Part shown: positions 44,792 through 62,145 of the stretch, piece by piece
How the letters are laid out: each line of letters starts with the position of its first letter
Position numbering within the stretch: the first letter of the stretch is position 1
Assembly (NCBI GenBank): GCA_041496545.1
Contig: JBGQET010000008.1
Span: 7,543-71,542, forward strand
Direction of reading: 5' to 3'
Source: Candidatus Binatia bacterium
Lineage (GTDB): Bacteria; Desulfobacterota; Binatia; DP-6
DNA length: 64,000 bases
Made by a program: the position numbers and the translations under genes
Notes under the pieces: generated by a model
The model's database searches: none
Told to the model about the DNA's origin: nothing
The model's input: the letters and a program-made list of their open reading frames with translations, nothing else

Positions 44792-44865
44792 GGCACAGGA
44801 CACGTCGCCGCTTGGCGCGACAGGCCTCGACTGCGCGAGGGCGTCCGTGCGTTGACATAGCGTCG

Positions 44866-45394: not shown

Positions 45395-46654
45395 ATGCTC
45401 GGACTCGTCCTCACCGCCGGCGGTGCGCGGGGCGCCTACCAAGCGGGCGTTCTCAAGCGGATCGGCGAGCTGGCCCTGCTGCGCGACGCGCCGCTCCCGT
45501 TCCAGGTCGTGACCGGCGCGTCGGCCGGGGCGATCAACGGGGCGCTCGTCGCCTCGCGGAGCGCGAGCTTCCGTGAGGCGACGCGGTCCGCCGCCCAGCT
45601 GTGGTCGGGCGTCAGGATGGAGCAGGTGTTCCGCACCGACGCGTGGTCGCTCGGGATGGGCGCCCTCGGCATGGTGCGGGACATGACGCTCGCCGGGTTC
45701 CTCGGGCACACGGTGACCCAGTCGCTCTTCGACGCCTCGCCGCTCTACGAGCTCGTGAGCCGTCACTTCGACGCGGGTGGGATCGCCGAGGCGATCGAGC
45801 GCGGGCACCTCTACGCGCTCGCGATCACGGCGACGAGCTACCACTCCGGGCGTTCGTATACCTTCGTGCAGGGACGTCCGGGGCACCCGGTGTGGACGAA
45901 GAGCCGCCGCGTGGTCCTGCCGGTGGAGCTCGGGCCCGACCACGTGTGTGCGTCGGCGGCGATTCCGATCGTGTTCCCGCCGGTCCGGGTGGCCTCGATC
46001 GCGGGCGACCTCTACTTCGGCGACGGCGGGCTGCGCCAGGTGACGCCCTTCAGCCCCGCGATCCGCCTGGGTGCGAGCCGCGTGCTCGCGGTCGGCATCC
46101 GCTCCCAGCGGGCCTCCGACGCCCTCTCACGGGAGGAGCTCGGCACTGCGGAGGAGGCAGGTCTCCAGGGCCCGAGCATCGTGCGTCCGCCGCTCGCGCA
46201 GATCTGCGGCGTGTTCCTGAACGCCATCTTCCTCGACCACCTGGACAGCGACCTCGATCACCTCCGGCGCATGAACGAGCTGATCCGCTCGTACGGGACT
46301 GCGGTCGGGGACGGCGACCCGCGGTCGCCGGCCGTGAGCGAGCCGATGCGCCTCGTCACCCCGCTCGTCATCACGCCGTCGGAAGACCTGGCGCTCGTGG
46401 CGCAACGCTTCGCGCATCGGATGCCGCGCCTCGTCCGCTACCTGATGGACGGCCTCGGCACGCCCGACGCGCAGAGCGCGGACCTGATGAGCTACCTGCT
46501 CTTCGACGGCACGTACACGCGAGCGCTCGTCGACATCGGCTACCGCGATGCCGACGAGCGGGCGGAGGAGATCGAGGCTTTCCTGGCAGCGGCGGCGGCC
46601 GAAGGCGCGACCTCGCGGAGCACGCGCTGGGTGAAGGCGAGCCGCCCGCCGTAG
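45395..46654 (+). CDS. patatin-like phospholipase
   Basis: GGARGAY (oxyanion Gly-rich motif), GASAG (GxSxG), and FGDGGL (the catalytic Asp motif). Confidence 0.88.
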   Translation: MLGLVLTAGGARGAYQAGVLKRIGELALLRDAPLPFQVVTGASAGAINGALVASRSASFREATRSAAQLWSGVRMEQVFRTDAWSLGMGALGMVRDMTLAGFLGHTVTQSLFDASPLYELVSRHFDAGGIAEAIERGHLYALAITATSYHSGRSYTFVQGRPGHPVWTKSRRVVLPVELGPDHVCASAAIPIVFPPVRVASIAGDLYFGDGGLRQVTPFSPAIRLGASRVLAVGIRSQRASDALSREELGTAEEAGLQGPSIVRPPLAQICGVFLNAIFLDHLDSDLDHLRRMNELIRSYGTAVGDGDPRSPAVSEPMRLVTPLVITPSEDLALVAQRFAHRMPRLVRYLMDGLGTPDAQSADLMSYLLFDGTYTRALVDIGYRDADERAEEIEAFLAAAAAEGATSRSTRWVKASRPP

Positions 46655-46952: not shown

Positions 46953-47753
46953 ATGGCCTACACGCTCATCACCGCCGAGCGCCGCGACGCGGTCGCGCTC
47001 ATCACCCTCAACCGTCCCGAGCGCTTGAACGCCTGGATGCCGGCGATGGCCGTCGAGCAGGCGGCGGCGATCGAGGAGGCGAACGCCGACCCGGCGGTCG
47101 GCGCCATCGTCATGACCGGCGCGGGGCGCGGCTTCTGCGCCGGCGCCGACATGGAGGCGACCTTCAAGTCGCGCATCGAGGGCGTCGACCCGGGCGAGAA
47201 CACCGCCGGCGGCTCGGGCGGCATGCCCGCGAGCCTCGACTGGGTGGGGCTCCTGCGGCGCTCGAAGCCGCTGGTCGCGGCGGTGAACGGCGCCGCGGTC
47301 GGCATCGGCATGACGATGATCCTGCCCTTCGACGTCATCCTCGCTTCGGAGAAGGCGCGCTTCGGGATGCTCTTCATCAAGGTGGGGCTCGTCCCCGAGC
47401 TGGCGAGCACGCACTTCCTGGTGCAGCGGATCGGTTTCGGGCACGCCAGCGAGATGTGTCTCTCGGGAAAGCTCTACGGCGCCGCGGAAGCGCACGCGTG
47501 GGGTCTCGCCGACCGCGTCTTCCCGCCCGACGACCTCGTGCCGCAAGCGCTCGCGCTGGCCGCCGAGATGGCGCAGAACCCCGACCCGCAGCTCCGCATG
47601 ATCAAGGAGCTGCTGTCGCGCAACGGGACGTCGACGGATCTGGGCGCCGTGCAGCGGCTGGAGACCGAGATGCTGGTACGCTGCTGGGCGTCGGCGGAGC
47701 ACCGCGAGGCGGTCGCCGCCTTCCTCGAAAAGCGCGCGCCGCGTTTTCGCTGA
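46953..47753 (+). CDS. enoyl-CoA hydratase/isomerase (crotonase) family protein
   Basis: ITLNRPERLNAW, TGAGRGFCAGADM and AAVNGAAVGIGMTM are present. Confidence 0.92.
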   Translation: MAYTLITAERRDAVALITLNRPERLNAWMPAMAVEQAAAIEEANADPAVGAIVMTGAGRGFCAGADMEATFKSRIEGVDPGENTAGGSGGMPASLDWVGLLRRSKPLVAAVNGAAVGIGMTMILPFDVILASEKARFGMLFIKVGLVPELASTHFLVQRIGFGHASEMCLSGKLYGAAEAHAWGLADRVFPPDDLVPQALALAAEMAQNPDPQLRMIKELLSRNGTSTDLGAVQRLETEMLVRCWASAEHREAVAAFLEKRAPRFR

Positions 47754-48030: not shown

Positions 48031-48366
48031 ATGCCACGCGAAACCAAAACCGTAACGATCTCCCTCCCGCCCGACATGGCCAAGGAGGTCGAGCACGTCC
48101 GAAAGGCCGAACACCGCACGAGCTCCGAGCTTTGGCGCGAGGCGATGCGCGACTACCTGCGCGCGCGGACTCTCCCTGCCTACGTTCCTACCCGCGCCGA
48201 GCTCCGTGCTATAGAGCGGGGTCGCGCCGCCATTCGACGCGGCGACTACTACACCCTCGATGAGTTCCGTACCCACCTCTTGGGAGCTCCGCGTCCACAA
48301 GCCAGCTCGAAAAAGTCTGGCCTACGCGCCACGTCCCGAACGCGAAAGACTCGTCGCCGCTCTTGA
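48031..48366 (+). CDS. ribbon-helix-helix (CopG/RelB-like) antitoxin
   Basis: KTVTISLPPDMAKEVEHVRKAEHRTSSELWREAMRDYL is RHH-like. The ORF runs 107 nt past the toxin start, giving a K/R/S-rich tail. Confidence 0.75.
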   Translation: MPRETKTVTISLPPDMAKEVEHVRKAEHRTSSELWREAMRDYLRARTLPAYVPTRAELRAIERGRAAIRRGDYYTLDEFRTHLLGAPRPQASSKKSGLRATSRTRKTRRRS

Positions 48367-48541
48367 GGCGATGACCGTGGACCCCTTCGCCGGGGACGTC
48401 CAACCCTCGAAGGGCCACCCCGTCGCCTTCCGTCGTCGCGTGGGTAACTGGCGCATCTTCTTCGAGGCCGACCGCGCCCACCGCGTAGTCGAAATCACTG
48501 ACATCGTGCGGCGTACCTCAACCACCTACCGCAAACGTTAG
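48260..48541 (+). CDS. RelE/ParE-family type II toxin
   Basis: WELRVHKPARKSLAYAPRPERERLVAALEAMTVDPFAGDV...FRRRVGNWRIFFEADRAHRVVEITDIVRR matches the RelE/ParE pattern. Confidence 0.8.
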   Translation: MSSVPTSWELRVHKPARKSLAYAPRPERERLVAALEAMTVDPFAGDVQPSKGHPVAFRRRVGNWRIFFEADRAHRVVEITDIVRRTSTTYRKR

Positions 48542-49050: not shown

Positions 49051-50043
49051 CTAGCGTTCGTCGAGCAGGACGCGGCGGGCGCTTCGTTCCGTGAGGTCGG
49101 CGATGAAGTCGCCGTGGTACGCCGGGCGCGCCTCGGTGAAGACCACGACCACCATCTCCCGCCCCGAGGCGACGTGACGCACGATGCCGGCGTCGGCGTA
49201 GATCGGGCCCCAGGTGCCGCTCTTGGCGTAGACTTCGAGGCCGCCGACGCGGGTCGCGCCGCCCGCCAGACGGTGCACGAGGTGCCGCTGCTCGTGCGGG
49301 TCGCGCCGCATGCGGCGGCGGACGGTCGCGGAATCCTCGGGCGTGAGCGCGCGGTCCGTCGCCAGCAGCGCCAGCAGCTTGGCGGTGCCGATCGCGGTCA
49401 TCGCCTGGCGGTTCGGGAGCTCGCCGCTGCGCGAGGGGAGGCCGCCCGGGATCGAATGGTCGCGGAGGAACTGCTCGTCGCGCCCGGCGAGGTCGCCGGT
49501 GCCGTCGTAGGTGGGAGCGACGCAGTGGAGGTCGGTGATGCCGAGCGTCTGGAGCCAGCGCAGCACGCCGAGCCGGCGCTCGCGGAAGGCGGCGTAGGCG
49601 TCGGGCGGCAGCACCGGGCCGGACTCGGTGCCGGTCAGGCGAGCGAAGACCCGCTGCGTCGCCTGGTTGCTGCTCTCGCGGATCATGTGCGTGAGCTGGT
49701 CGTCGAGGGCGTCGTCGATGCGCAGCCGGCCCTCCTCCTGGAACGCATAGGCCGCCATCAGGTACACGAACTTGACGACGCTCGCCGGGTAGATCGGCGC
49801 CTCGCCGTGATGGTCGGCGAGGCGCGGCGGCTCGCCGCGGGCGAGGTCGAGGACGGCGACGCGGATCGCCGTCTGGCGAAGGTTGGAATCGGCGGCGACG
49901 GCGCGCTCGATCGCCGCGTCGAGGAACGTCTGCAGCTCCGGCGACGGCCGGATCGTCGCCAGCCAATCGCGGGCGCCGGCGGGTGGCGGCGCCGCGCCGG
50001 CGGTGGCGCAGAGCAGGGGGATCAGCAGGACGAGGGGCCACAT
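49051..50043 (-). CDS. class-A beta-lactamase-fold serine hydrolase, secreted
   Basis: Signal peptide MWPLVLLIPLLCATAGA, with SVVK (SxxK), SSN (SxN) and KSG (KTG-like). An alternative TTG start lies at 50073. Confidence 0.8.
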   Translation of the reverse strand: MWPLVLLIPLLCATAGAAPPPAGARDWLATIRPSPELQTFLDAAIERAVAADSNLRQTAIRVAVLDLARGEPPRLADHHGEAPIYPASVVKFVYLMAAYAFQEEGRLRIDDALDDQLTHMIRESSNQATQRVFARLTGTESGPVLPPDAYAAFRERRLGVLRWLQTLGITDLHCVAPTYDGTGDLAGRDEQFLRDHSIPGGLPSRSGELPNRQAMTAIGTAKLLALLATDRALTPEDSATVRRRMRRDPHEQRHLVHRLAGGATRVGGLEVYAKSGTWGPIYADAGIVRHVASGREMVVVVFTEARPAYHGDFIADLTERSARRVLLDER

Positions 50044-50138
50044 CCGCGCACGATAGCGGTTTCCGCGCGGCAATTCTCCTGCCCCCCGATTTAGGCTAAA
50101 GGAGTCGCGCCTCGGTGGGAGGCGAAGGAGGACACCCG

Positions 50139-53100
50139 GTGCGGCACAGGTGGATGGTGGTGGTGACCTGCGCGCTCGTCGCGCTGGCTGGCGTCGCGCG
50201 GCCGGCGCGGGCGCTGCGTGCGCTCGACCTGACGCCGCAGCAGGAGAAGCAACTGCGCGCGAACTTCCTGCTCTGCCTCGCGAAGCTGAAGGGCCCCTAC
50301 ACCGAGAACTACTGCGTCTGTCGCAACGGCGAGAAGCTCTCGGTGACCGGGCCGGACGGCAACGTGCGGAGCCCCTGCGGCACCAATGAGCTCTTCTGCG
50401 CGGCCTACCGCGCGCCCTGGGCCGACGCGCTCGCGCACGAGCGGATGTACATCGCGAACATCTTCTCCCGCGACCTCTACGAGTGGGACAAGTTCTCCGA
50501 TCACCACGACCTGGTGCGGGGCTACATCCTCGAGAAGTACTTCGTCGAGACCAACCCGACGCACAAGCTGGCGGAGCTGCGCGCGTACGGCGGGCTCTCG
50601 GGCTCGGAGTACGAGACGGGCGCCTCGGCGACCTTCTTCGAGCGCTACCTGGCGTCGCCCGAGTTCGACGACGCCAGGCACTTCCTCCTCGCCTACGAGA
50701 TCCAGAAGCGCTTCTTCGTGCGCCAGGACCTCGGCCAGATCCAGAAGGTCCGCGCCATGGCGGTGCGGGTGCAGAACGCCAACGCCAAGTTCAAGCCGCT
50801 GCGCGACGCCGTCCACAACCAGATCTCCGCCAGCCTCCTGCCGCAGCTCACCGCCTTCCGGAACGGGCTCTCGGCGGGCGAGACGCGCTCCGAGGTCGAC
50901 GACATCATCAGCGAGGTCACGAAGCTCACGCAGCTCGACGAGGGCGCGCTCCAGACCCAGGTCACCGCGCTCCAGGACGCGGCGCTGCGTGCCAAGGTCG
51001 GGGCGCTGGTGCCGGCCGCCAACGCCGACCCGGTCGACGCCGTCGTGTCGCTCGCGAACCTGATGGTGACGGCGCGCCAGACCGTCGCCGGGCGCAAGGC
51101 GTCGCCCGGCGACGCGCGCAAGCTGGTCGACCTGGACATCACCGCCGCCGCGGTCCTCCAGCGTCGCGGCAACGCGCTCCTCGACTCCAACCCCGCGCTG
51201 ACCGCGAAGCAGTACGTGCGGCTCCTGACCGCGCTCACCGACGGCGCCTACGGCGCGGGGCTCCTGACGCCGCGCGAGCGCGAGTCGGCCGGCGCGACGC
51301 TCCGCGACCTGGCCGACACCGCGAAGCGGCCGCGCGCCGAGCTCACGGCGCGGCTCAAGGCGGCCGAGCGCGTCGTCGAGTGGGCGCAGGCCAACGCGCT
51401 CATCGGCTTCGCCGAGGTGTGGGCGCCGTGGAACCTGCTCCTGCCGCAGGTCGCCTCGATCGGCGACGACATCCTGCGCGGCTCGCCGCTCCTCCTCTAC
51501 GCCCGGGTCGCACGCCGGCTGGACGACTTCGCCGCCGGCAAGGCCCGCATCCGGCACGATCTCTTCGGCGCGGAGCTGGACACCGACGTGCGCGCGCTCA
51601 ACCCCGGGCTCGCGGTCGGCAGGCTCCGCGTCGCGCCCAAGGAAGGCGCGTTCTCCCGCGACGACGTCGTCGCGCTGCCCGACACGCCCGCCGACCTCGA
51701 GCCCACGGCCGGCATCTTGACGCAGGGCGAGGGCAACGTGCTCTCGCACGTGCAGCTGCTGGCGCGCGCGCTCGGCATCCCGAACGTCGTGGTCGGTCCG
51801 GGGGCCTACGTCAAGGTGAAGCCGCACGACGGCGAGCAGGTCTTCTACATCGTCACCCCGGGCGGGCGCGTGATCCTGAAGGACGTGGCGGCGATGACCG
51901 CCGAGGAGCGCGCCGTCTACGAGGAGTACACGCGCAACCAGAAGCGCAGCGCCGACGGGAGCCTCGAGGGCGGGGCGAGCAAGCTCCACATCGACAAAGC
52001 CCGCATCGACGTGGCCGGCAAGGCGCCGCGCGACCTGGTGACCGTCCGCCGGGCCGACTCGGGCCGGACGTGCGGGCCGAAGGCCGCCTTCCTCGGCGAG
52101 CTGAAGCACCTCTTTCCCGACCACGTCGCGCGCGGCGTCGTGGTGCCGTTCGGCGCCTACTACGACCACTACCAGCACGCCCCGGTCGCCGTCCCCCTGA
52201 AGTACAAGGCGCTCGGCCTGGCCAAGCCCGACGAGCTGCTGCCCGTCTTCGTCGAGCGCACCTACCACGAGTTCTTCGACGTCATGATCCCGGCCAAGAA
52301 GAGCGAGAAGGAGCTGTCGGGCTGGATCACGACGCGCCTGGAGGTGATCCGCGACTCGATCCAGCAAGCGCCGCTCGCGCCCGAGCTGAAACGGGGCATC
52401 CGCGACGAGCTCGACAAGGTCGGGCTCCTCACCGGCCCCAACAAGACCGACACCGTCGGCTGCTTCGTGCGCAGCGACACCAACGTCGAGGACCTCGACA
52501 ACTTCAACGGCGCCGGCTTGAACCTGACGGTCTTCAACCGCAAGTCGCTCGACGACATCTACGAGAGCCTGAAGGAGGTGTGGGCGTCGCCGTTCGAGTT
52601 CCGGTCGTTCTCGTGGCGTCAGACGCTGATCGACGAGCCGCTCTGGGTGCTGCCCTCGGTCGTGATCCTCGAGTCGGTCCCGAACGAGAAGTCCGGCGTC
52701 CTCGTCACCGCGGACATCGACACGGGCGACCTCCACAAGATGGTGGTGGCGACCTCGGAAGGCGTCGGCGGGGCGGTGGACGGCACCTCGGCGGAGACGC
52801 TCCTCTGGTCGCCCGACAAGGTCGAGCTGCTGACGCTCTTCAAGTCGCCGTGGCGGCGCACGCTCCTCCCCGGCGGCGGCAGCGAGATCGTCGCCGCGTC
52901 GGGCAAGGACCACGTGCTCGAGCCCGACGAGCTGAAGCAGATCATCGACGCGGGCAAGAAGATCGGGGAGAGCCTCGAGCCGTCGCGCGACCCGGCCGGG
53001 CGCCCGCGGCCGTGGGACATCGAGTTCGGCTTCCGCGGCGGCAAGCTCTGGCTCTTCCAGTGCCGTCCGTTCTGCGGCAACGACGCCTTGAAGAACGTCC

Positions 53101-53174
53101 CCGCGCTCGCCGCGCTCGAGGTCCAGAGTGGGGACGCCAAGGAAGAGGTTTCACTCGACGAGGTGATCCGGTGA
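50139..53174 (+). CDS. signal-peptide-bearing PEP-utilising-type phosphotransferase (Cys-rich N-domain, swivel phosphohistidine domain, PPDK_N ATP-grasp domain)
   Basis: GAAGGAGGA lies 7 nt upstream of GTG 50139 (the ORF opens at 50115). The signal peptide is RHRWMVVVTCALVALAGVARPARA, and the next ~60 aa contain 6 Cys. The swivel motif is TQGEGNVLSHVQLLARALGIPNVVVG. PPDK_N motifs are CGPKAAFLGEL, VRSDTNVEDLDNFNGAGLNLTV, EVWASPF and EKSGVLVTAD. Confidence 0.85.
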   Translation: MRHRWMVVVTCALVALAGVARPARALRALDLTPQQEKQLRANFLLCLAKLKGPYTENYCVCRNGEKLSVTGPDGNVRSPCGTNELFCAAYRAPWADALAHERMYIANIFSRDLYEWDKFSDHHDLVRGYILEKYFVETNPTHKLAELRAYGGLSGSEYETGASATFFERYLASPEFDDARHFLLAYEIQKRFFVRQDLGQIQKVRAMAVRVQNANAKFKPLRDAVHNQISASLLPQLTAFRNGLSAGETRSEVDDIISEVTKLTQLDEGALQTQVTALQDAALRAKVGALVPAANADPVDAVVSLANLMVTARQTVAGRKASPGDARKLVDLDITAAAVLQRRGNALLDSNPALTAKQYVRLLTALTDGAYGAGLLTPRERESAGATLRDLADTAKRPRAELTARLKAAERVVEWAQANALIGFAEVWAPWNLLLPQVASIGDDILRGSPLLLYARVARRLDDFAAGKARIRHDLFGAELDTDVRALNPGLAVGRLRVAPKEGAFSRDDVVALPDTPADLEPTAGILTQGEGNVLSHVQLLARALGIPNVVVGPGAYVKVKPHDGEQVFYIVTPGGRVILKDVAAMTAEERAVYEEYTRNQKRSADGSLEGGASKLHIDKARIDVAGKAPRDLVTVRRADSGRTCGPKAAFLGELKHLFPDHVARGVVVPFGAYYDHYQHAPVAVPLKYKALGLAKPDELLPVFVERTYHEFFDVMIPAKKSEKELSGWITTRLEVIRDSIQQAPLAPELKRGIRDELDKVGLLTGPNKTDTVGCFVRSDTNVEDLDNFNGAGLNLTVFNRKSLDDIYESLKEVWASPFEFRSFSWRQTLIDEPLWVLPSVVILESVPNEKSGVLVTADIDTGDLHKMVVATSEGVGGAVDGTSAETLLWSPDKVELLTLFKSPWRRTLLPGGGSEIVAASGKDHVLEPDELKQIIDAGKKIGESLEPSRDPAGRPRPWDIEFGFRGGKLWLFQCRPFCGNDALKNVPALAALEVQSGDAKEEVSLDEVIR

Positions 53175-54805
53175 AGGCTCTGCTGGCGGTCCTCGCCCTG
53201 GCGCTCGCCGTTTCACCGGCGCGCGCCGCGCTCGACGCGACCGACACCACGTGGGACGGCAGCGAGCCGCCGAAGGGCGTCTACTTCTACTGGTACGAGC
53301 CGTCCTTCTACACCGGCTTCGCGCCGCGGACGCAGGAGCCCGAGCGCCTCCACATCCAGCTCTCCCGCGGCCAGCAGGTGCGCGTCACGCTCGTCCTCGG
53401 CGAGCGGCAGCTCGACGCCTACCTCGACGACCTGGTCGCGCGCCGCCAGGTCTACCAGGAGCTGATCGACGGCAAGATCATCGAGCTGACGACCAACAAG
53501 GAGTACGAGCGCTTCACGGCCAAGCTCGACGAGGTGGGCGTCGCGGAAGCGGCGAAGAGCCGCGCGACCCTCGGCCCCGACGCCTACCGGCTGAAGAGCC
53601 TCGATGTCATGACGAAGCTCAACCCCGAGCGCGTCTTCCGCATCGGCATCTCGCTCGATCGCCTGCTCGCGAGCTGGCACGCGCGGCTCGCCGGACTCGG
53701 CCCCGACGACCTCGGCTCGGCCGCCAAGAAGCTCGACGCCGCCAACGCGCTCGTCCCCGGCCGCGTGAACCTCTACGAGCTGGGCCCGGAGCTGGACGCC
53801 TCGCTCGCCAAGGCGGTCGAGCTGGCGCACGCCGGGAAGCCCGACGCGCCCGCCTTCCGCGACCAGGCCACGGCCTTCCTCGAGCGCGCCACGGGCGGGC
53901 GCTACCGCTTGCACGACAAGGCGGTCGAGGCGGTCGAGTTCACCACCATCTATCCCGCGGGCACGGTCGACGCGACGACGACCTACAAGGGCGAGAAGCT
54001 CCCCGACTTCGGCGTCACCGGCGTCTGGTCGCTCACCCGGCGGACGCACGGGCAGGGCATCCTCGGCATGGTGGACTACCTCTCTCCCAACCCCGGCTAC
54101 GGCTTCATCAGCATGCTGCCGTACCAGTACGCCGGCGGCATCACCTACAACGCCTTCCACAACGCCGGCGTGCGCTGCGGCCTCGGCGAGACGCCCTTTC
54201 TCCCCAGCGCGTGGCGCCGCGTGATGAGCGAGCGCGACCCGAAGAAGGCCTATCAGAACCTGTGGATCATCAGCCGCGGCCCCACCTCGCACGGCTGCAC
54301 GCGGCTCGCCTCGGGGCACATGAGCGAGCTGCGCCAGATCGTGCCCACGGACTCCGAGGTGCTGGAGCACGTGGCGACGTTCCGCAACCTGCCGGGATGC
54401 TACGACGCCTTCGACATCGACGGCGACGGCAAAGCGGAGGTGATGGGCGTGCAGTACTACCTCGCCTTCAAGAGCCACGAGCACACGCCGGTGAAGTCGT
54501 ACGCGTCGAACCACCGCGAGCCGTTCTACCGCTGGCTCTACGGCACCAACGTCAACTACGGCGAGGTCGGCCACGTGACGCTGAAGGAGGTCCCGGTCTG
54601 CCGTTTCGTCGGCAAGAAGGCGGAGGAGGCCGAGGTGCTGCGCGACATGCCGCTCTACGAGGCGAAGTTCGCCCCCGAGCCGATCCAGTTCTACCGCACG
54701 AAGCCGGCGCCGTTCGACAGCGACCGCGGCTTCGAGTTCAACCGCGAGCTGCGCAAGGTCGGCCACGGCCACACCCTCGACCGCGCGAGGCTCTTCCTCA
54801 AATGA
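53171..54805 (+). CDS. secreted protein with divergent L,D-transpeptidase-like catalytic motif (paralog 1)
   Basis: The GTG start overlaps the upstream stop as GTGA, and a signal peptide is present. The motif is SRGPTSHGCTRL, with the Cys codon at 54296-98. The N-terminal block is YEPSFYTGFAPRT. Confidence 0.75.
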   Translation: MKALLAVLALALAVSPARAALDATDTTWDGSEPPKGVYFYWYEPSFYTGFAPRTQEPERLHIQLSRGQQVRVTLVLGERQLDAYLDDLVARRQVYQELIDGKIIELTTNKEYERFTAKLDEVGVAEAAKSRATLGPDAYRLKSLDVMTKLNPERVFRIGISLDRLLASWHARLAGLGPDDLGSAAKKLDAANALVPGRVNLYELGPELDASLAKAVELAHAGKPDAPAFRDQATAFLERATGGRYRLHDKAVEAVEFTTIYPAGTVDATTTYKGEKLPDFGVTGVWSLTRRTHGQGILGMVDYLSPNPGYGFISMLPYQYAGGITYNAFHNAGVRCGLGETPFLPSAWRRVMSERDPKKAYQNLWIISRGPTSHGCTRLASGHMSELRQIVPTDSEVLEHVATFRNLPGCYDAFDIDGDGKAEVMGVQYYLAFKSHEHTPVKSYASNHREPFYRWLYGTNVNYGEVGHVTLKEVPVCRFVGKKAEEAEVLRDMPLYEAKFAPEPIQFYRTKPAPFDSDRGFEFNRELRKVGHGHTLDRARLFLK

Positions 54806-56367
54806 CGGCGCGCGCGCTGGTTCTCGCCCTGCTTGCCGCCGTCGCGACGGCGCGCGCCGGCGGCCCCACGCTCGAGGGTCCGCCGCAATACGGCATCTAC
54901 TACGACCGGCCCGAGCCGTCCTTCTACACCGGCTTCGCGCCGCGCACCCTCGACCCGCACCGCATCCACGTCCACCTCGGTCGCGGCGACCAGTTCCGCC
55001 TCACCGTCGTGCTCGCCGACGACGTGCTGCGCGAGTACACGCGCGACCTCCACGAGCGGGCGCGGACGTATCGCGCCCTGGTGGACGGCGGCCGTCTCGT
55101 CCTGACCCAGAACGAGGGCCTCGCCGAGTTCGAGCGGAGGCTCGGCGAGATCGGGCTCGACCGCCTCGTCGCCGAGGAGGCGAAGCTCGCGCCCGCGGCA
55201 CTCCGCGAGCGCAACTTGGCACTCCTCGAGCGCTTGAACCCCGGGCTCGTGTTCCACCTCCGCATGCCGCTCGACGACGTGATCCGCCGCTGGCAGGGGC
55301 GGGTGCTGCCCGACGACGCCCGCGCCATGAGCGCCGAGCGCCGCGTCGAGCTGCTGAACGCCATGCTGCCGACGCGCCTCTTCGTCGCCGAGGTCGCGCC
55401 CGAGGAAGCGCGTGAGCTGGACGCGCTCGTGAAGCAGGCGTCGGCGGGCGCCGACCCGCGCGCGCTTCGCCCGGCGTTCGTCCGCCTCCTCGACCACGTC
55501 GGCCGGGGCTTCTATCCCGCCGCCGGCGACGCGCTCGTCTTCGACGAGTTCACGGCGATCTACCCGGTCGGCACGTGGAACGACTACACCGTCGTCCACG
55601 GCCGCCAGATCCCGGCCTATCCCACCCCCGGCCGGCACGCCTTCACCACGCACCAGCGCACCAAGACGCCCGACCACGTGCCGACCGACACCGAGTACAG
55701 CTACTTCCCGTGGCTGCCGTACATCCACATCGGCACCCGCATGCACGACGCCGTCCACACGCTCTGGTGGACGATGCCGACGGCCGAGACGTCCTTCCTG
55801 CCCGCGGCGTGGCGCGCCGACCCGCACCGCTACCTCTGGCTCTTGTCGCGTGGTCCCATGTCGCACGGTTGCACGCACCTGAACGCCGGCCACATCTCCG
55901 AGCTGCGCCAGGTGCTGCCCGCCGAGACCGAGCAGCTCTTCGAGGTGGACGTCTTCCTGAACACCTCGCCGCTCTACGACGTCTTCGACATCGACGGCGA
56001 CGGCACCCCGGAGGTGATGGGCGTCCGCTACTTCATCGCCTACGCCCTCGACAAGGCGAACCGGCCCGACCACCTGCGCGCCCCCAACGAGCGCCACGCC
56101 TACTACGACTGGCTCTACGGCGGGGAGCTCGAGTACGACGGACAGGACCGCGGCGTCTTCCGGAGGATCCGCGACTGCCGCTTCGTCGACCGCAAGGCCG
56201 TGGACGGCGCGGAGTACGAGCGCATCGCGCTGCACGAAGCGGCGTACGAGCCGGAGAAGATCCAGTTCTACCGGCTGGTAGACGTCGATTTCGCACGCGA
56301 GCTGCGCAAAGTGAGCGTGCGGCACCCGTTCCGGGGCGTCGGCGGGACGGCGATGAGCGCGCGATGA
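54802..56367 (+). CDS. secreted protein with divergent L,D-transpeptidase-like catalytic motif (paralog 2)
   Basis: The ATG overlaps the upstream stop as ATGA, and a signal peptide is present. The motif is SRGPMSHGCTHL, with the Cys codon at 55870-72. It shares the blocks PEPSFYTGFAPRT, FDIDGDG..EVMGV.Y and IQFYR with paralog 1. Confidence 0.75.
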   Translation: MTARALVLALLAAVATARAGGPTLEGPPQYGIYYDRPEPSFYTGFAPRTLDPHRIHVHLGRGDQFRLTVVLADDVLREYTRDLHERARTYRALVDGGRLVLTQNEGLAEFERRLGEIGLDRLVAEEAKLAPAALRERNLALLERLNPGLVFHLRMPLDDVIRRWQGRVLPDDARAMSAERRVELLNAMLPTRLFVAEVAPEEARELDALVKQASAGADPRALRPAFVRLLDHVGRGFYPAAGDALVFDEFTAIYPVGTWNDYTVVHGRQIPAYPTPGRHAFTTHQRTKTPDHVPTDTEYSYFPWLPYIHIGTRMHDAVHTLWWTMPTAETSFLPAAWRADPHRYLWLLSRGPMSHGCTHLNAGHISELRQVLPAETEQLFEVDVFLNTSPLYDVFDIDGDGTPEVMGVRYFIAYALDKANRPDHLRAPNERHAYYDWLYGGELEYDGQDRGVFRRIRDCRFVDRKAVDGAEYERIALHEAAYEPEKIQFYRLVDVDFARELRKVSVRHPFRGVGGTAMSAR

Positions 56368-57556: not shown

Positions 57557-60500
57557 CTACGACGCGGCGCCGCCGCCGCGCTCGTTCTGCTCGCGCAGCC
57601 GTCGCGACAGCGTCTGGCAGATCGCGATCGCGATGCCGGGATGCTCGTCCATCACCTGGAGGAGGTCGTTCCGCTCGAGGCGAAGGACGCGGACGCGGCT
57701 CTCCGCCATGACCGTCGCGGCGCGCGTCGCGCCGTCGAAGAGCGCCATCTCCCCGAAGAACTCGCGCGGGCCGAGGCGGGCGAGGAAGCGGTCCTCGCGC
57801 GTGACGCGGACGGTGCCGGAGAGGATCACGTACATGCCGTCGTCGAGGTCGCCCTCGCGGACGATCGTGGTGCCGGCGGCGTGGGCTTCCTCCCGGACGA
57901 CGGCGGCGAGCTCCGTCAGCTCGCGCGTGGTCAAGCGGGCGAAGAGGTCGAGGCTGCGGAGCTGGAGCACGATCTCCACCCGGTCGAGCATGCGGGCGTC
58001 ATCATCACTCAGATCGCCGCCGCGGGCCAGCGCGTGCGCCGGCGTCGGGTCGAAGGCGAGCTGACCGGGCACGACTTCGACGGGACCGCCGGCGCGGCCG
58101 AGCGTCTCGGCGTCGAGCGTGGCGGCGAGGAAGGTGAGCGCCAGCGGGTCCTGGTCGGCCAGCGTGTCGTGGAGCGCCGACTCCGCCGGCGGCAGCGCGC
58201 GCGGGGCGCGCTCCTCGAGGAGCGGCAGCACGCGGGCCGACTCCTCGGGCGGGAGCAGCGCTTCGAGCGCTTCGACGAGCACCGCGCGGCCGCGTCCCGG
58301 GGCGCAGCGCGCGAGCAGGCGGCCGAGGACCGCGATCCGCTCCTCGTGCCGGAGCGTCGCGAGCAGGAGGAGCGCGGTGTGGACGCCCTCGTCGACGCGC
58401 TCCCCGAGCCGCTGCAGCACCAACGCGGACACGCGCCCGGCGCCGAGCGCGTGGAGCTGCGTGCGCGCGCGCGCGGCGGCTTCGAGCTCGCGGTCGAGGA
58501 CTTCGCGCAGCGCCGCGACGTCCAGCGGCAGGTCGGCGAGGACGGGCAGGACGGCGTCGCGCGTCGCGCGCTTGCCCGAGCGGAGCGCCTCGAGCAGCGC
58601 CGGCATGGCGGCGGCGCCGAGGAGGTGCACGGCTTCGCGAGCGGCCGCGGCTTCGGCGTCGTCGTCGGCGGCCAGCCGCGACACGACCCAGGCGGCGTGC
58701 GGCTCGAGACGCGTGTGCCCGACGAAGCGGAGCACCGCGGCGCGCACGCGCGGGTCGGCGTCGGACGCGTGCGCGCAGACGAGGTTGCCCACCGACGCGA
58801 GCCGCGGGCCTGCCTGCGCGGCGACGGCCGCGAGCGCGTCGGCGGCGCGCGCGCGCTCGCGCGGCGACGCGAGCAGCGTCGTGAGGAGCGCGACCCGCGC
58901 CTCCCAGCGGCCGGCGCCGTCCGGGCCGAGGAGCGAGGCGCGCAGCTCCTCGAGCGCCACCTCGCGGGCGGCGGCGTCCTCGCTGGCGAGCCCGCCGGCC
59001 AGGAGCGCGTCGAGCTCGGTGCCGCGACGGAGCCCCGCGGCGGCCGCCAGGCGGACGGCCTCCGCGGGGTCGTCGAGCCAGCGGGGCAGCATGTCGGCCG
59101 CGGCGTCGGGGCGGAGCCGCGCCACCGCCTGCACCAGGTGCGCCCGCTCGCGCGGCGTGAGCGCGCCCGGCTGGGCGAGCAGCGCTTCGAGGTCGCGCGC
59201 GGAGTCGGGCGCCGGCAGGCCGACGCCGCCCCGCTCGAGCACCCGGTGCACGGCTTCGACGAGGAGCGCGCGGTTCTCCACCGGCGCGCGCCGGGTGGCA
59301 CGCGCCAGCGCCTCGACGGCGCGCGCCGGCGGTCCCTCGACGACCAGCGCGCAGGCGGCGCGGCAGCGCTGCGGGTCGGGGTCGGCGAGCGACGCTTCGA
59401 GGACGCGGAGCGTGCCGGAATCGATCATCTCCCCGAAGGCCGGCGCGTCGCCGCCGTGCCCGCGGCCGGCGCGTGCGACCTCGACCAGCAGCGTGGGGTA
59501 GATGCGCCAGAGGGCGGCTGTGACGACGAGCCAGAGCGCGGCGATCGGCAGCCCGGCGTACCCCACCCACGCGGGCGTGCCGAGGGCGAGCGCGGCGAGG
59601 ATGATCAGGTTGCCGAGCGCGCCTCCCGCGCGCCGCACCGTGCCCTCGACCAGCGTGGTGACCGCCGGACGCACGCGCTCGCGGAAGAGCGTCACCAGCA
59701 CCTTCTGCGCCGGGTCGTACACGGCGTGGTCCTGGAGCGTCACGCCGGCCACCGCCGCGACGCCGGCCGGGAGCCCGAGCCGTACGCTCAAGCCGAGGAA
59801 GCCGAGGAGGTAGACGACGGGCGAGAGGGTGGCGGCGAGCGGCACGCCGATGGTGCGGAACAGGCGCGCCGTGCCGGCGAGCTGGAGCCCGAGCACGCCG
59901 ACGTTGATCCAGCCGCGGAAGCGGGCGTAGAGGTCGAGCAAGCGCTGCTCGCCGTTCGCGCCCTTGGTCGCCAGGTCGGCGACGTACGAGAACTGGAAGT
60001 AGAGCATCGGGCCGAGCGTGCCGGCGAGGAGCGCGCCCGCGACCAGGAGGCGGAAGAGGCCGCCCTCGCGCCAGAGGGCGCTGAGGACGGGCAGCGCGTC
60101 GTGCCGGGGCGCGCGGGCCCCGGTCGCGCGCCCGACGCGCATCGGGGCGCGTCCGCGGAGCGCCGCGGCGAGCCCGCCGGCGAGCGCGAAGGCGAGGGCG
60201 GCGACGGGCAGCAGCGACGCGATGCCGAGCGCGCGGCCGAGCGGGCCCGAGGCGAAGCTGCCGCCGATCATGCCGAGCGTCCCGCCCGCCATCATGGGCG
60301 CGTAGAGCCGCTTGCCCTGGCGGCCGTGCAGCAACCCGCCGAGCGCGATCCAGAGCGCGACCAGCGCGATCGACTCGATCTGCTTGGCGGCGATCACGAG
60401 CAGCACGAACGCGGGGCGGACGTCGCCCACGACGAGCAGCCAGAGCGGCACGAGCGTCGCGGCGAGGAGGAAGAACGTCCGCACGAGGAGGCGTAGGTGC

Positions 60501-60742
60501 TCGGCGCGCGCGGCCAGCCGCCCCACCCGCGAGGTCGTCCAGGCGAGGAGCAGCGAGTTCACGAGGAACACGAGCGGCAGGTAGCCGACGCCGACGCGCT
60601 TCAGGAAGAACGTCTCCGAGACGTTGGTGAGCGAGACGGCCGCCCAGCCGAGGAGGAAGAAGGTGGCGGCGCCCCAGGCGAAGACGCGTCCCTCGCCGGG
60701 CTCGAGCCCGATGGCTCGCGCGAGGCGGCGGAGCGCGGTCAT
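57557..60742 (-). CDS. fusion protein: TLC (ATP/ADP translocase-like) transporter, HEAT repeats and a cNMP-binding domain
   Basis: The ATG at 60742 overlaps the upstream stop as ATGA. About 12 TM segments begin with EGRVFAWGAATFFLLGWAAVSLTNVSETFFLKRVG. HEAT-like repeats follow (DPDPQRCRAAC.., DADPRVRAAVLRFVG..). The C-terminal cNMP core is GPREFFGEMALFDGATRAATV. Confidence 0.85.
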   Translation of the reverse strand: MTALRRLARAIGLEPGEGRVFAWGAATFFLLGWAAVSLTNVSETFFLKRVGVGYLPLVFLVNSLLLAWTTSRVGRLAARAEHLRLLVRTFFLLAATLVPLWLLVVGDVRPAFVLLVIAAKQIESIALVALWIALGGLLHGRQGKRLYAPMMAGGTLGMIGGSFASGPLGRALGIASLLPVAALAFALAGGLAAALRGRAPMRVGRATGARAPRHDALPVLSALWREGGLFRLLVAGALLAGTLGPMLYFQFSYVADLATKGANGEQRLLDLYARFRGWINVGVLGLQLAGTARLFRTIGVPLAATLSPVVYLLGFLGLSVRLGLPAGVAAVAGVTLQDHAVYDPAQKVLVTLFRERVRPAVTTLVEGTVRRAGGALGNLIILAALALGTPAWVGYAGLPIAALWLVVTAALWRIYPTLLVEVARAGRGHGGDAPAFGEMIDSGTLRVLEASLADPDPQRCRAACALVVEGPPARAVEALARATRRAPVENRALLVEAVHRVLERGGVGLPAPDSARDLEALLAQPGALTPRERAHLVQAVARLRPDAAADMLPRWLDDPAEAVRLAAAAGLRRGTELDALLAGGLASEDAAAREVALEELRASLLGPDGAGRWEARVALLTTLLASPRERARAADALAAVAAQAGPRLASVGNLVCAHASDADPRVRAAVLRFVGHTRLEPHAAWVVSRLAADDDAEAAAAREAVHLLGAAAMPALLEALRSGKRATRDAVLPVLADLPLDVAALREVLDRELEAAARARTQLHALGAGRVSALVLQRLGERVDEGVHTALLLLATLRHEERIAVLGRLLARCAPGRGRAVLVEALEALLPPEESARVLPLLEERAPRALPPAESALHDTLADQDPLALTFLAATLDAETLGRAGGPVEVVPGQLAFDPTPAHALARGGDLSDDDARMLDRVEIVLQLRSLDLFARLTTRELTELAAVVREEAHAAGTTIVREGDLDDGMYVILSGTVRVTREDRFLARLGPREFFGEMALFDGATRAATVMAESRVRVLRLERNDLLQVMDEHPGIAIAICQTLSRRLREQNERGGGAAS

Positions 60743-62145
60743 GCCGCGACGCGCTCGGGGGCGGGCGCCGTGAGGCGGGTGTGCTCGCGCACGACGACGG
60801 CCGCGCACGTCAACCAGAGCGCCACGAGCGCCACGTTGAACAGGAAGAAGGAGCGGGTCGAGAGGGCGAAGACCTGGACGCCGACCAGCACGGTGGCCGC
60901 CGCCAGCCCGTCGCCGACGCGCACGAAGAGGGTTTCGATCGCGGGCTTCGCCTTGTACTTCATCTCGGCGGTGGTCGGCAGCCAGAGCACGTGCCGCGCC
61001 GTGTTGTTGATCGAGTAGGAGGTGGAGTTCTCCGCGGTCTTCATCACCTGGACGACGAGCAGGACCGGCAGGAACGCCATCGCCGCGTAGCTGACGAGCG
61101 AGATCGTCGGCAGCAGGAGCAGGATCAGGCCGAAGCCCCCGTACTTGAGGAGCCGCGAGGCGAGCAACGCCTGGAGGACGAGGGCGCAGGCGTTCACCCA
61201 GAAGAAGAAGTTGCCGTAGAAGGCGGTCGTCCCGGTCTGCACGTACGAGCGCACGAGGTGGGGCTCGGTGAGGCCGCGCGCCGCGAGCTGGTGCTCGAGC
61301 GCCTCCTGCACGACCTGGAAGAGGAGGTTCTCGCCGTTGGTGCTCACCCAGTTGGTGAGCAGCGCGACCGCCGCCACGGCGAGCAGGTAACGGTGGCGGC
61401 GGACGAGCGCCAGGGCGCCGGCCCCGGCGCCGCGCGCGGCCGACTTGGCGGCGGTCGCCCGCGCCGCGCCGTGTCCCGCCCCGGTCCGCCCGCGCGCGTC
61501 GGCGACGGCGGTCAGGGCGATGGAGAGCGCGAGCGGCACGTTCGCCGCGAGGAGGAGGGAGCCGCTGTCGATCATCCCGGAGCCGACGATCGTCTCGGTC
61601 AGGTACGAGCCCGCGGTCGCGCCGGCGGTCGCGCCGATGGCGATGAGCGGCAGCAGGCGCTGCCCGCCCTCGTCGCTGTAGAGGTCGGCGGCGAAGGCCC
61701 AGAACTGCGACACGACGAAGACGCCGAACATCCCCACCCAGACGTAGAACGCCACCGCCGCGCCGGGCACGTCCTCGGCGAGGAAGCCGGGGCGGAGGCA
61801 CCAAAAGACGAGCAGGTTCGCCATGCAGAACAGCGTGGCGCGCGTGATCAGCCGCCGCCGGGGCCAGCGGGCCGCCAGCCGGGCGTAGAGCGACACGGCC
61901 GGCACGAGGAGCAGGCCCTGGGCGAAGCTGGTGTACGCCTTCACCTCCATCTTCGACAGACCGTGCACCGGCGACACCGCGATCCAGCCGTCGCGCAGCG
62001 GCTTCACGAAGTAGTAGGCGCAGAGGATGAGGAAGACGTTCGCGAACATGACCAGACCGGTCGGGCCCTCGCCCGGGCGGACGTCGGTGAAGAGACAGAG
62101 CGCGCGCTCGAGCGGCGAGCGGCGGGGGGGCGCCGCGGGGTTCAT
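60739..62145 (-). CDS. TLC-family (Npt1-like ADP/ATP carrier) transporter
   Basis: FANVFLILCAYYFVKPLRD, FVVSQFWAFAADLYS, and NFFFWVNACALVLQ are typical of TLC nucleotide transporters, with about 12 TM segments. Confidence 0.88.
   Translation of the reverse strand: MNPAAPPRRSPLERALCLFTDVRPGEGPTGLVMFANVFLILCAYYFVKPLRDGWIAVSPVHGLSKMEVKAYTSFAQGLLLVPAVSLYARLAARWPRRRLITRATLFCMANLLVFWCLRPGFLAEDVPGAAVAFYVWVGMFGVFVVSQFWAFAADLYSDEGGQRLLPLIAIGATAGATAGSYLTETIVGSGMIDSGSLLLAANVPLALSIALTAVADARGRTGAGHGAARATAAKSAARGAGAGALALVRRHRYLLAVAAVALLTNWVSTNGENLLFQVVQEALEHQLAARGLTEPHLVRSYVQTGTTAFYGNFFFWVNACALVLQALLASRLLKYGGFGLILLLLPTISLVSYAAMAFLPVLLVVQVMKTAENSTSYSINNTARHVLWLPTTAEMKYKAKPAIETLFVRVGDGLAAATVLVGVQVFALSTRSFFLFNVALVALWLTCAAVVVREHTRLTAPAPERVAA

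Follow-up and report, generated by a model that had tools for sequence, protein, structure and literature searches.

A putative extracytoplasmic phosphotransfer module in Binatia joins a predicted exported dikinase-like enzyme, a new family of cysteine enzymes and nucleotide transporters

How could an enzyme that depends on ATP operate outside the cytoplasm? The question is raised by a locus in a 64,000-nucleotide stretch of a Candidatus Binatia bacterium genome (GenBank assembly GCA_041496545.1, contig JBGQET010000008.1, positions 7,543 to 71,542 of the forward strand; hereafter the window). In the textbook view the periplasm contains no ATP, and reactions in the envelope draw their energy from pre-activated bonds or from inner-membrane machines. 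The locus (Table 1) encodes a dikinase-like enzyme that appears to be exported (G1), two secreted paralogs with a candidate catalytic Cys (G2 and G3), a serine enzyme of the beta-lactamase fold (BLA) and two predicted nucleotide transporters of the NTT family (NTT468 and the fusion protein NTT-HEAT-cNBD). An initial annotation of the locus, made from the sequence alone, had described G1 as an ATP-dependent enzyme located where no ATP is expected; the predicted location was upheld, whereas the adjoining NTT/TLC transporters had been missed, and these nucleotide carriers offer an answer to the paradox of an ATP enzyme with no ATP around it. We propose, giving this reading an even chance of being correct, that these genes specify a phosphotransfer module that works outside the cytoplasm on ATP, with a periplasmic 'X, water dikinase' fed by NTT carriers.

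G1 consists, from N- to C-terminus, of a signal peptide, a mini-domain with four Cys, a helical domain of ~400 amino acids (aa), a swivel phosphohistidine domain and an ATP-grasp domain of the PPDK_N type. In Pfam searches, PPDK_N (PF01326) matched aa 723-975 (E = 1e-22, with 81 bits for a cut-off of 27; most analyses used the numbering of the 1006-aa form of G1), PEP-utilizers (PF00391) fell slightly under its cut-off at aa 513-551 (E = 3.3e-4, 20.6 bits against 23.1) and was scored as a match in several G1 orthologs, and PEP-utilizers_C gave no match. The motif GNVLSHVQLLARALGIPNVV aligned with the motif around the catalytic His in PEP synthase 8a8e, as did GEGNVLSHVQLLARALGIPNVV when a profile of 30 G1 homologs was compared with the same protein (2.6e-18), and the candidate catalytic residue is His545 (1019-aa numbering; codon 51747-51749). 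The S-H swivel motif was unchanged across the 30 homologs, and the GPK, VRS..ED, DIEF and Q.RP motifs, with the Lys, Arg, Glu and Gln expected to bind nucleotide and Mg, were invariant in them; all of these also persisted in a subfamily of 32% identity. In their longer form the conserved motifs read GPKAAFLGE, VRSDTNVED, EKSGVLVTAD, WDIEFGF and LFQCRP. The annotated swivel phosphohistidine and PPDK_N-type domains are therefore present with intact motifs.

Outside these domains, similarity to known proteins ended. The NCBIfam models for PEP synthase, rifampin phosphotransferase (RPH) and PigC/RedH covered only the ATP-grasp domain (5e-25 to 1e-10, with RPH and PigC/RedH at 1e-10 to 1e-12), and the PEP synthase models scored at most 88 against cut-offs of ~600 or more. 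Foldseek searches with an AlphaFold2 (AF2) model of G1 (predicted local distance difference test, pLDDT, 72) returned the ATP-grasp domains of RPH, HpeI and PEP synthase at ~1e-10 and nothing else. The N-terminal ~460 residues, a small Cys-containing beta unit followed by helices, had no relative by Pfam, NCBIfam, PDB-sequence search or Foldseek, in agreement with the earlier description of a helical stretch of no recognizable type. Motifs and profiles together assign G1 to the His-swivel/ATP-grasp dikinases (the PEPS, PPDK, RPH and GWD superfamily), and its predicted domains set it apart from PEP synthase and PPDK proper, since it has no TIM barrel and its domain order is reversed.

The RPH, PEP synthase, PigC/RedH and HpeI-type dikinases, which gave the best structural or sequence matches to the G1 ATP-grasp domain, share with G1 the swivel-His motif GG/GN-x-x-S/T-H...ARxLGIP, but they are cytoplasmic and have the ATP-grasp domain first and the swivel domain last or central; G1 also lacks the domains that bind rifampin and PEP. 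The order found in G1 had been noted as the reverse of that in PEP synthase, PPDK and RPH, which is correct, but it is not unprecedented, because plant glucan, water dikinase (GWD) shares it. In the potato enzyme the catalytic His lies in the fourth domain and the ATP-binding domain is C-terminal (PMC13553574). Like G1, GWD1 and PWD of plant plastids combine an N-terminus, substrate-binding in the plant enzymes, with a phosphohistidine domain and a C-terminal PPDK_N-type ATP domain, and neither GWD nor G1 has the PEP/pyruvate TIM barrel. By analogy, G1 would be expected to catalyse a reaction of the GWD type, ATP + X + H2O -> AMP + Pi + X-P, where Pi is inorganic phosphate (PMC13553574). Unlike GWD, G1 has no CBM45 or CBM20 in Pfam searches and an N-terminal region without detectable relatives, comes from bacteria, bears Cys of the disulfide type behind a signal peptide, and is accompanied by Cys- and Ser-enzymes and NTT transporters.

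Export of G1 from the cytoplasm is strongly suggested by its N-terminus. In all inspected homologs, including those of 31-35% identity, a positive n-region and a short hydrophobic core were followed by an AxA-type site directly preceding the conserved mature sequence. The G1 core is unlikely to act as a membrane anchor because, at ~13 residues, it is too short, and the window protein has no second hydrophobic segment. Whereas the annotated signal peptide was thus kept throughout, only four Cys of the annotated six-Cys segment were conserved (C54, C56, C75 and C82 of the 1006-aa form). In two homologs (P0031 and P0094) C54 and C82 were replaced together while C56 and C75 were retained, which is the pattern expected of disulfide partners. 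The signal peptide of the cleavable Sec type, the covarying Cys pair and the lack of any other transmembrane segment make a cytoplasmic or membrane-anchored G1 unlikely, and a Tat signal was rejected for want of a twin-arginine motif. Signal peptides were likewise found on G2, G3, BLA, and two further proteins of related loci described below, a second beta-lactamase-like protein and a 5'-nucleotidase; a Ca-binding-type DxDxDG loop (FDIDGDG, aa 414-420 of G2) is moreover invariant in G2 and G3.

The genes for G2 and G3 are joined to G1 and to each other by 4-nt start/stop overlaps (GTGA at 53171-74 and ATGA at 54802-05), both as initially annotated, and by this arrangement are translationally coupled to G1. 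The two proteins, described before as secreted paralogs, proved to be related from end to end, with 38% identity (E = 7e-103), and to have in common, besides the signal peptides, the blocks PSFYTGFAPRT and SRGP(T/M)SHGCT(R/H)L. Invariant across the G2/G3 subfamilies were H330, R369, S373, G375, C376, E386 and R388 (G2 numbering), so that the SHGC motif is S373-H-G-C376 in G2, and the corresponding Cys of G3 is Cys357; the codons given earlier for the two Cys (54296-98 and 55870-55872) are correct. The His-to-Cys spacing, singled out as unusually long, is 46 in G2 and 38 in G3; the fragment of LdtB aligned from E. coli has His98 and Cys114, a spacing of 16.

We found that the proposed likeness of G2 and G3 to L,D-transpeptidases (LDTs) of the YkuD family held for the active-site motif (~27 residues) and was not borne out by profiles, hhalign or Foldseek. 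YkuD was the sole recurrent Pfam signal of the family, yet it scored 13-16 bits against a cut-off of 23.4, always over 25-33 residues at the Cys motif; it matched G2 at E = 0.16 (13 bits), G3 not at all, and 10/43 and 7/21 members of the family (best E 0.021 in 64 members). When the family was compared by hhalign with an alignment of E. coli LdtB, LdtE, LdtD and DpaA, SHGCTRL and the next helix aligned with the E. coli Ldt motif over 27 residues (probability 14.5%, pairwise E 0.0019), and the same four residues (His, Ser, Gly and Cys) were invariant in the E. coli alignment. The AF2 model of G2 (m4c5a8539b73e; pLDDT 85, predicted template modelling score, pTM, 0.88) placed a strand with the His, a strand with SxGC, a helix and a strand around the motif, and Foldseek found no match to it in the PDB at E < 0.28 and none in BFVD. 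An exhaustive search with the family hidden Markov model (HMM) retrieved 315 proteins among 1.84 billion representatives, mostly fragments of the same family, and therefore the profile does not reach the YkuD family, which is very large. Bona fide YkuD membership was thus unsupported by Pfam, hhalign, Foldseek (PDB and BFVD) and exhaustive profile search. A PTP-type CX5R phosphatase motif was also considered and is absent at the Cys (C-T-R-L-A-S-G-H).

As judged from sequence, G2 and G3 make up a new and closed family, in which the catalytic motif is YkuD-like and the core fold could be a very divergent YkuD domain. It resembles the YkuD LDTs (E. coli LdtA-E and DpaA) in its predicted export and in having an invariant upstream His and S-x-G-C on a strand followed by a helix, and differs from them in its His-Cys spacing, its length of 520-630 aa, which includes a large region of beta strands and helices at the N-terminus, its additional invariant Arg, His and Glu, and the DxDxDG loop. 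Together, these invariant residues (Cys, His, Arg and Glu) suggest that the enzymes act by covalent catalysis and that their substrate is anionic and perhaps phosphorylated.

We then assessed how far these genes occur together. Relatives of G1 were found in at least 584 species genomes in a scan with one genome per species, among Binatia, Myxococcota, Desulfobacterota, Methylococcaceae and other Gammaproteobacteria, Hyphomicrobiales, Holophagae and Bacteriovoracaceae; cultured hosts include delta proteobacterium NaphS2 (Desulfobacterota) and Microbaculum sp. FT89 (Hyphomicrobiales). Within Binatia, G1 was 63-72% conserved. The annotated trio was co-conserved in other genomes: a G2/G3-family gene was present in 37/37 close-subfamily G1 loci flanked on each side by 4 kb or more, at one to three genes per locus, and a third G2/G3 subfamily exists. 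In a second, distant G1 subfamily (31-35% identity) there was no G2/G3 gene, and G1 was followed by a second beta-lactamase-fold gene (430 aa) together with NTT genes. The proteins of this subfamily (loci L067-L080) have another Cys pattern (RWFCNDG...YAC..GGG.QHGEW). Some genomes hold both subfamilies, with second G1 copies of the distant type at L041:2-2554 and L064:2170-5004.

The nucleotide transporters emerged from clustering all open reading frames (ORFs) of 80 loci, in which a membrane protein represented in the window by NTT468 recurred in 34 of the 80. NTT468 has multiple hydrophobic segments and matched TIGR00769, the NTP/NDP exchange transporter model, at 2.4e-5, and Pfam TLC (PF03219) at 0.005 (16.1 bits against a cut-off of 21). 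We counted it as a member of the NTT/TLC family because it is homologous to relatives that pass the TLC cut-off: BLASTP aligned it over its full length (E = 3e-21) with NaphS2 L047:3212-4540, itself a TLC match at 1.4e-21 (77 bits), and other transporters next to G1 matched TLC at 2e-16 and 8e-10. The NTT-HEAT-cNBD fusion has ~10-12 hydrophobic segments, a cNMP_binding domain (3.3e-22) and an N-terminal part of 514 aa resembling the NaphS2 TLC protein (E = 3e-5). By the ATGA stop/start overlap at 60739-60742, the two transporter genes are coupled in translation as G1, G2 and G3 are, and orthologs of the fusion adjoin G1 loci in ~15 Binatia and Myxococcota genomes.

A strong association of G1 with these transporters was apparent in both directions. 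Of the 34 G1 loci flanked by 7 kb or more on either side, 26 had a TLC-like gene within 10 kb of G1 (cluster HMM), and when metagenome loci of at least 12 kb were chosen solely by an NTT468 homolog, a G1-family gene was found in 12/16 and BLA in 10/16. Binatia and Myxococcota have the pair of NTT and NTT-HEAT-cNBD either up- or downstream of G1, Desulfobacterota the order G1-NTT-G2like-NTT/HEAT/cNBD, and gammaproteobacterial loci of the distant subfamily the order G1like-BLA2-NTT(s)-BLA. This variation between lineages argues for selection rather than inherited synteny. The window thus has one plain NTT and one fusion of the NTT-HEAT-cNBD architecture, which is widespread in free-living bacteria in an unknown role (PMC5381601; Major, Embley and Williams 2017). 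The NTTs characterised so far bring the ATP of a host into intracellular bacteria and plastids, whereas those of the window are tied to a predicted exported, ATP-dependent enzyme of free-living bacteria, and this genomic tie suggests an outward supply of ATP.

The divergent neighbours of G1 provide further indications. BLA matched Pfam Beta-lactamase2 (PF13354; 5.4e-15, above the cut-off), in keeping with the annotated beta-lactamase-fold gene divergent from G1, and its SxxK (S88, K91), SSN (124-126) and KSG (274-276) motifs were invariant in 15 orthologs. A close relationship to any solved enzyme was rejected, as phmmer found none and the family profile gave only weak matches to the class A enzymes LRA-5, Tll2115 and BlaB (best PDB E 0.0046); by fold profile and motifs, BLA is assigned to the class A beta-lactamase/penicillin-binding protein (PBP)-like serine enzymes. 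It was present in 24 of the 37 well-flanked loci of the close subfamily. At the position of BLA, five Desulfobacterota loci (L046, L048, L049, L057 and L062) encode an exported 5'-nucleotidase (Metallophos and 5_nucleotid_C domains) divergent from G1, for example at L049:8187-9821 on the minus strand, which would fit a role in clearing AMP formed outside the cytoplasm. A transporter of the sodium:dicarboxylate symporter family (SDF) fused to a periplasmic SBP_bac_3 domain also recurred, in nine loci of several phyla (L014, L022, L028, L032, L034, L056, L061, L069 and L078; for example L032:805-3018), including two well-flanked loci that have no NTT (L034 and L056), and may import a product of the module.

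In the mechanism that we propose, G1 would be exported by Sec and its signal peptide cleaved, and two disulfides would form in the N-terminal mini-domain. ATP would enter the periplasm through NTT468 and NTT-HEAT-cNBD, running as antiporters in the export direction down the cytoplasm-to-periplasm ATP gradient, with the cytoplasmic cNBD gating the supply. The C-terminal ATP-grasp domain of G1 would bind ATP and pyrophosphorylate the swivel His, the gamma-phosphate leaving as Pi, and the His~P would pass the beta-phosphate on to a substrate bound in the helical domain near the N-terminus, yielding AMP, Pi and the phosphorylated substrate; in Desulfobacterota the exported 5'-nucleotidase would clear the AMP. 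G2 and G3, which coupling and constant co-occurrence tie to G1 of the close subfamily, would act on the same substrate with their invariant Cys and its His, Arg and Glu partners, and BLA would trim this substrate, which would then probably be a peptide containing D-amino acids.

The chemistry that we prefer for these steps has the logic of succinyl-CoA synthetase, in which an ATP-grasp domain, a phospho-His on a mobile element and a phosphorylated carboxylate lead to attack by a thiol and thus to a thioester. Phosphorylation by G1 would similarly activate an envelope polymer or peptide at a carboxylate or hydroxyl group, and the Cys enzyme would form a covalent intermediate and transfer the group, following the route from ATP-grasp to His~P, acyl phosphate and thioester. 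The outcome would be ligation or remodelling outside the cytoplasm with no need for pre-stored bond energy. The likeness would be a mechanistic analogy only: succinyl-CoA synthetase is cytoplasmic, its thiol is CoA, and there is no homology to G1 and G2/G3 beyond the ATP-grasp fold. An envelope or peptidoglycan peptide is no more than our guess for the substrate. A peptide, for instance that of the peptidoglycan stem, is weakly indicated by the PBP-like BLA with intact SxxK, SxN and KSG motifs, by the YkuD-like motif and by the transporter fusion of the amino-acid type.

Several observations weigh against this mechanism. Classical NTTs exchange ATP for ADP, whereas G1 would give AMP and Pi, and although ATP export is thermodynamically plausible for an antiporter, we know of no NTT for which it has been shown. 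NTT468 itself lies below the Pfam TLC cut-off, and 8/34 well-flanked loci have no NTT nearby, among them that of the cultured Microbaculum sp. FT89 (L056), so that in such loci the transporter is either encoded elsewhere or not required. Further, no component contains a peptidoglycan-binding domain, G2 and G3 have no detectable YkuD fold, and the G1 model is of moderate confidence (pLDDT 72) and least confident in the conserved aa 30-250, which therefore permits no statement on the substrate pocket. All characterised NTTs are importers (PMC5381601; bioRxiv 10.64898/2026.03.31.715626), and according to the 2026 preprint a mitochondrial carrier is the only known ATP exporter (bioRxiv 10.64898/2026.03.31.715626).

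Other readings place the same components in different roles. It is unlikely, in our assessment, that they modify peptidoglycan in a new way, along the lines of the initial annotation, with G2 and G3 as true if divergent LDTs of the YkuD fold, BLA as a DD-carboxypeptidase that makes the tetrapeptide donor, and G1 phosphorylating peptidoglycan or a stem peptide. The only recurrent Pfam match of G2/G3 is YkuD, always at the catalytic-Cys motif, the hhalign pairing falls on this motif and the next helix, the invariant His, Ser, Gly and Cys are common to both families in a compatible order of secondary structure, BLA keeps the PBP motifs, and a transporter fusion for amino acids or dicarboxylates occurs in nine loci. 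However, the hhalign probability is low and covers 27 columns, Foldseek with the confident G2 model recovers no LDT from the PDB (best E 0.28), the family HMM gives no link to YkuD among its 315 proteins in 1.84e9, and the His-Cys spacing is more than twice that of LdtB; there is also no LysM, PG_binding or SPOR domain, and BLA is missing from the Desulfobacterota loci. With RPHs as the closest structural relatives of the G1 ATP-grasp domain, RPH and PigC/RedH models among its matches, and one or two beta-lactamase-fold genes in most loci, the module might instead serve periplasmic detoxification or resistance, G1 inactivating an envelope-targeting antibiotic or toxin by phosphorylation, which is how RPH works in the cytoplasm, with ATP supplied by the NTT, and the BLA-fold proteins and G2/G3 acting as further inactivators or decoys. 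We regard this as improbable, since the module is chromosomal, vertically widespread in free-living soil, sediment and marine lineages and so conserved in Binatia that a housekeeping role in the envelope seems more fitting; the loci showed no mobile-element context, the substrate-binding domain of RPH is absent from G1, and BLA is very remote from real beta-lactamases.

The direction of the reaction and the nature of the substrate may also be read differently. G1 could use extracellular or periplasmic phospho-compounds or nucleotides, perhaps in the reaction X-P + AMP + Pi -> ATP, with the NTTs importing; the dikinase reaction of PPDK is reversible, import is the direction of all characterised NTTs, and the association of NTT with G1 carries no direction in itself. 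Such scavenging is nevertheless very improbable: outside the cell no high-energy phosphoryl donor is both plausible and abundant, the AMP needed for the reaction would be degraded by the co-located 5'-nucleotidase, and the obligatory G2/G3 partners and BLA would be unexplained. Least probable of all the readings considered is a periplasmic or extracellular glycan, water dikinase that phosphorylates a periplasmic glucan, an exopolysaccharide or a glycan strand, as GWD does starch, with G2/G3 in accessory binding or processing; although the overall architecture of G1 is that of GWD, neither G1, G2, G3 nor the constant neighbours contain a carbohydrate-binding module, another carbohydrate-binding domain or a glycoside-hydrolase domain, and the partner enzymes have Cys and Ser as nucleophiles, as is typical where peptides or esters are the substrates. 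Membership in an anti-phage defence system of known type was rejected, as PADLOC gave only generic cNBD matches.

The initial annotation had recognized no pathway that would match the locus, and neither did we: within incomplete coverage of the literature, no published description was found of an exported PPDK_N/swivel-His enzyme, of its link to NTTs, of NTTs as a source of periplasmic ATP or of the G2/G3 family. The superfamilies of the components (dikinase, NTT and beta-lactamase fold) are known, and their assembly, their location and the G2/G3 family are new. The locus thereby defines a family of predicted exported Cys enzymes without detectable structural relatives and what appears to be a new bacterial branch of GWD-like dikinases. 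It also joins two questions, how ATP passes the inner membrane, its route into the periplasm being unknown according to a review (PMC7432876), and what NTTs do in free-living bacteria (PMC5381601), and both become testable, partly in the cultured NaphS2 and Microbaculum sp. FT89.

With peptidoglycan or another envelope polymer as substrate, the module would amount to a new energy-dependent remodelling of the envelope and a possible antibiotic-relevant pathway. A periplasmic ATP economy of many free-living Gram-negatives, with cyclic-nucleotide-gated ATP export by NTTs, a Sec-exported dikinase and substrate processing by G2/G3, is a more tentative extension that we think has somewhat less than an even chance, and the lineages involved may be Binatia, Myxococcota, Desulfobacterota, methanotrophic and other Proteobacteria, and Holophagae. 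Processing by G2/G3 could then be, for instance, a ligation or cross-linking outside the cytoplasm that depends on energy. Such an economy would give the NTTs and NTT-HEAT-cNBD proteins found in free-living bacteria a first function, and chemistry in the periplasm could no longer be regarded as independent of ATP.

The window has a G+C content of ~72%, and its nearest relatives are metagenome-assembled genomes labelled Candidatus Binatia. G1 may start at GTG 50115 (1019 aa) or ATG 50154 (1006 aa), the former being likelier because AGGAG lies 10 nt upstream, and BLA at TTG 50073 or ATG 50043, so that the spacer between the two genes, previously given as ~95 nt, is actually ~41-71 nt depending on the start codons. 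Promoter and terminator scans gave nothing informative at ~70% GC. The 367-aa membrane protein encoded between G3 and the NTT genes, multi-pass and with seven Cys, had no Pfam or NCBIfam match and no tblastn match in 160 related loci; it is probably not part of the module, because it has no counterpart in the other loci, and was rejected as a component.

Table 1 Features of the G1-G2-G3 locus and adjoining transporter genes in the window
Feature	Coordinates	Strand	Remarks
BLA, exported class A beta-lactamase/PBP-fold serine enzyme (predicted)	49051..50073	-	divergent from G1
G1, exported dikinase-like enzyme (predicted)	50115..53174	+	signal peptide, Cys segment, helical region, swivel His, PPDK_N
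G2, exported member of new family (predicted)	53171..54805	+	544 aa; GTGA overlap with G1
G3, paralog of G2	54802..56367	+	521 aa; ATGA overlap with G2
Membrane protein, 367 aa	56374..57477	-	between G3 and NTT genes
NTT-HEAT-cNBD fusion	57557..60742	-	1061 aa; TLC-like membrane domain, HEAT-type repeats, C-terminal cNBD
NTT468, single-domain NTT/TLC-family nucleotide transporter (predicted)	60739..62145	-	ATGA overlap with NTT-HEAT-cNBD gene

Directly to the left of BLA, a putative type II toxin-antitoxin pair marks the left edge of the conserved block, with a CopG-type RHH antitoxin ORF (48031-48366, +) overlapping a ParE-like toxin ORF (48260-48541, +; Pfam ParE_toxin 8.8e-4, below the cut-off). 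Farther upstream, apparently unrelated to the module, are genes for a patatin-like phospholipase (45395-46654, +) and an enoyl-CoA hydratase (46953-47753, +). The region 35316-44800 contains a bacterial alpha-2-macroglobulin ORF (35316-42416, +) with bMG3, MG2, bMG6, A2M_BRD, A2M and bMG10 domains, followed at ~42.5-44.0 kb (+) by a PBP1C-like protein with Transgly and Transpeptidase domains; we take these two genes, ~4 kb upstream of the module, to be the known periplasmic pair A2M-PbpC.

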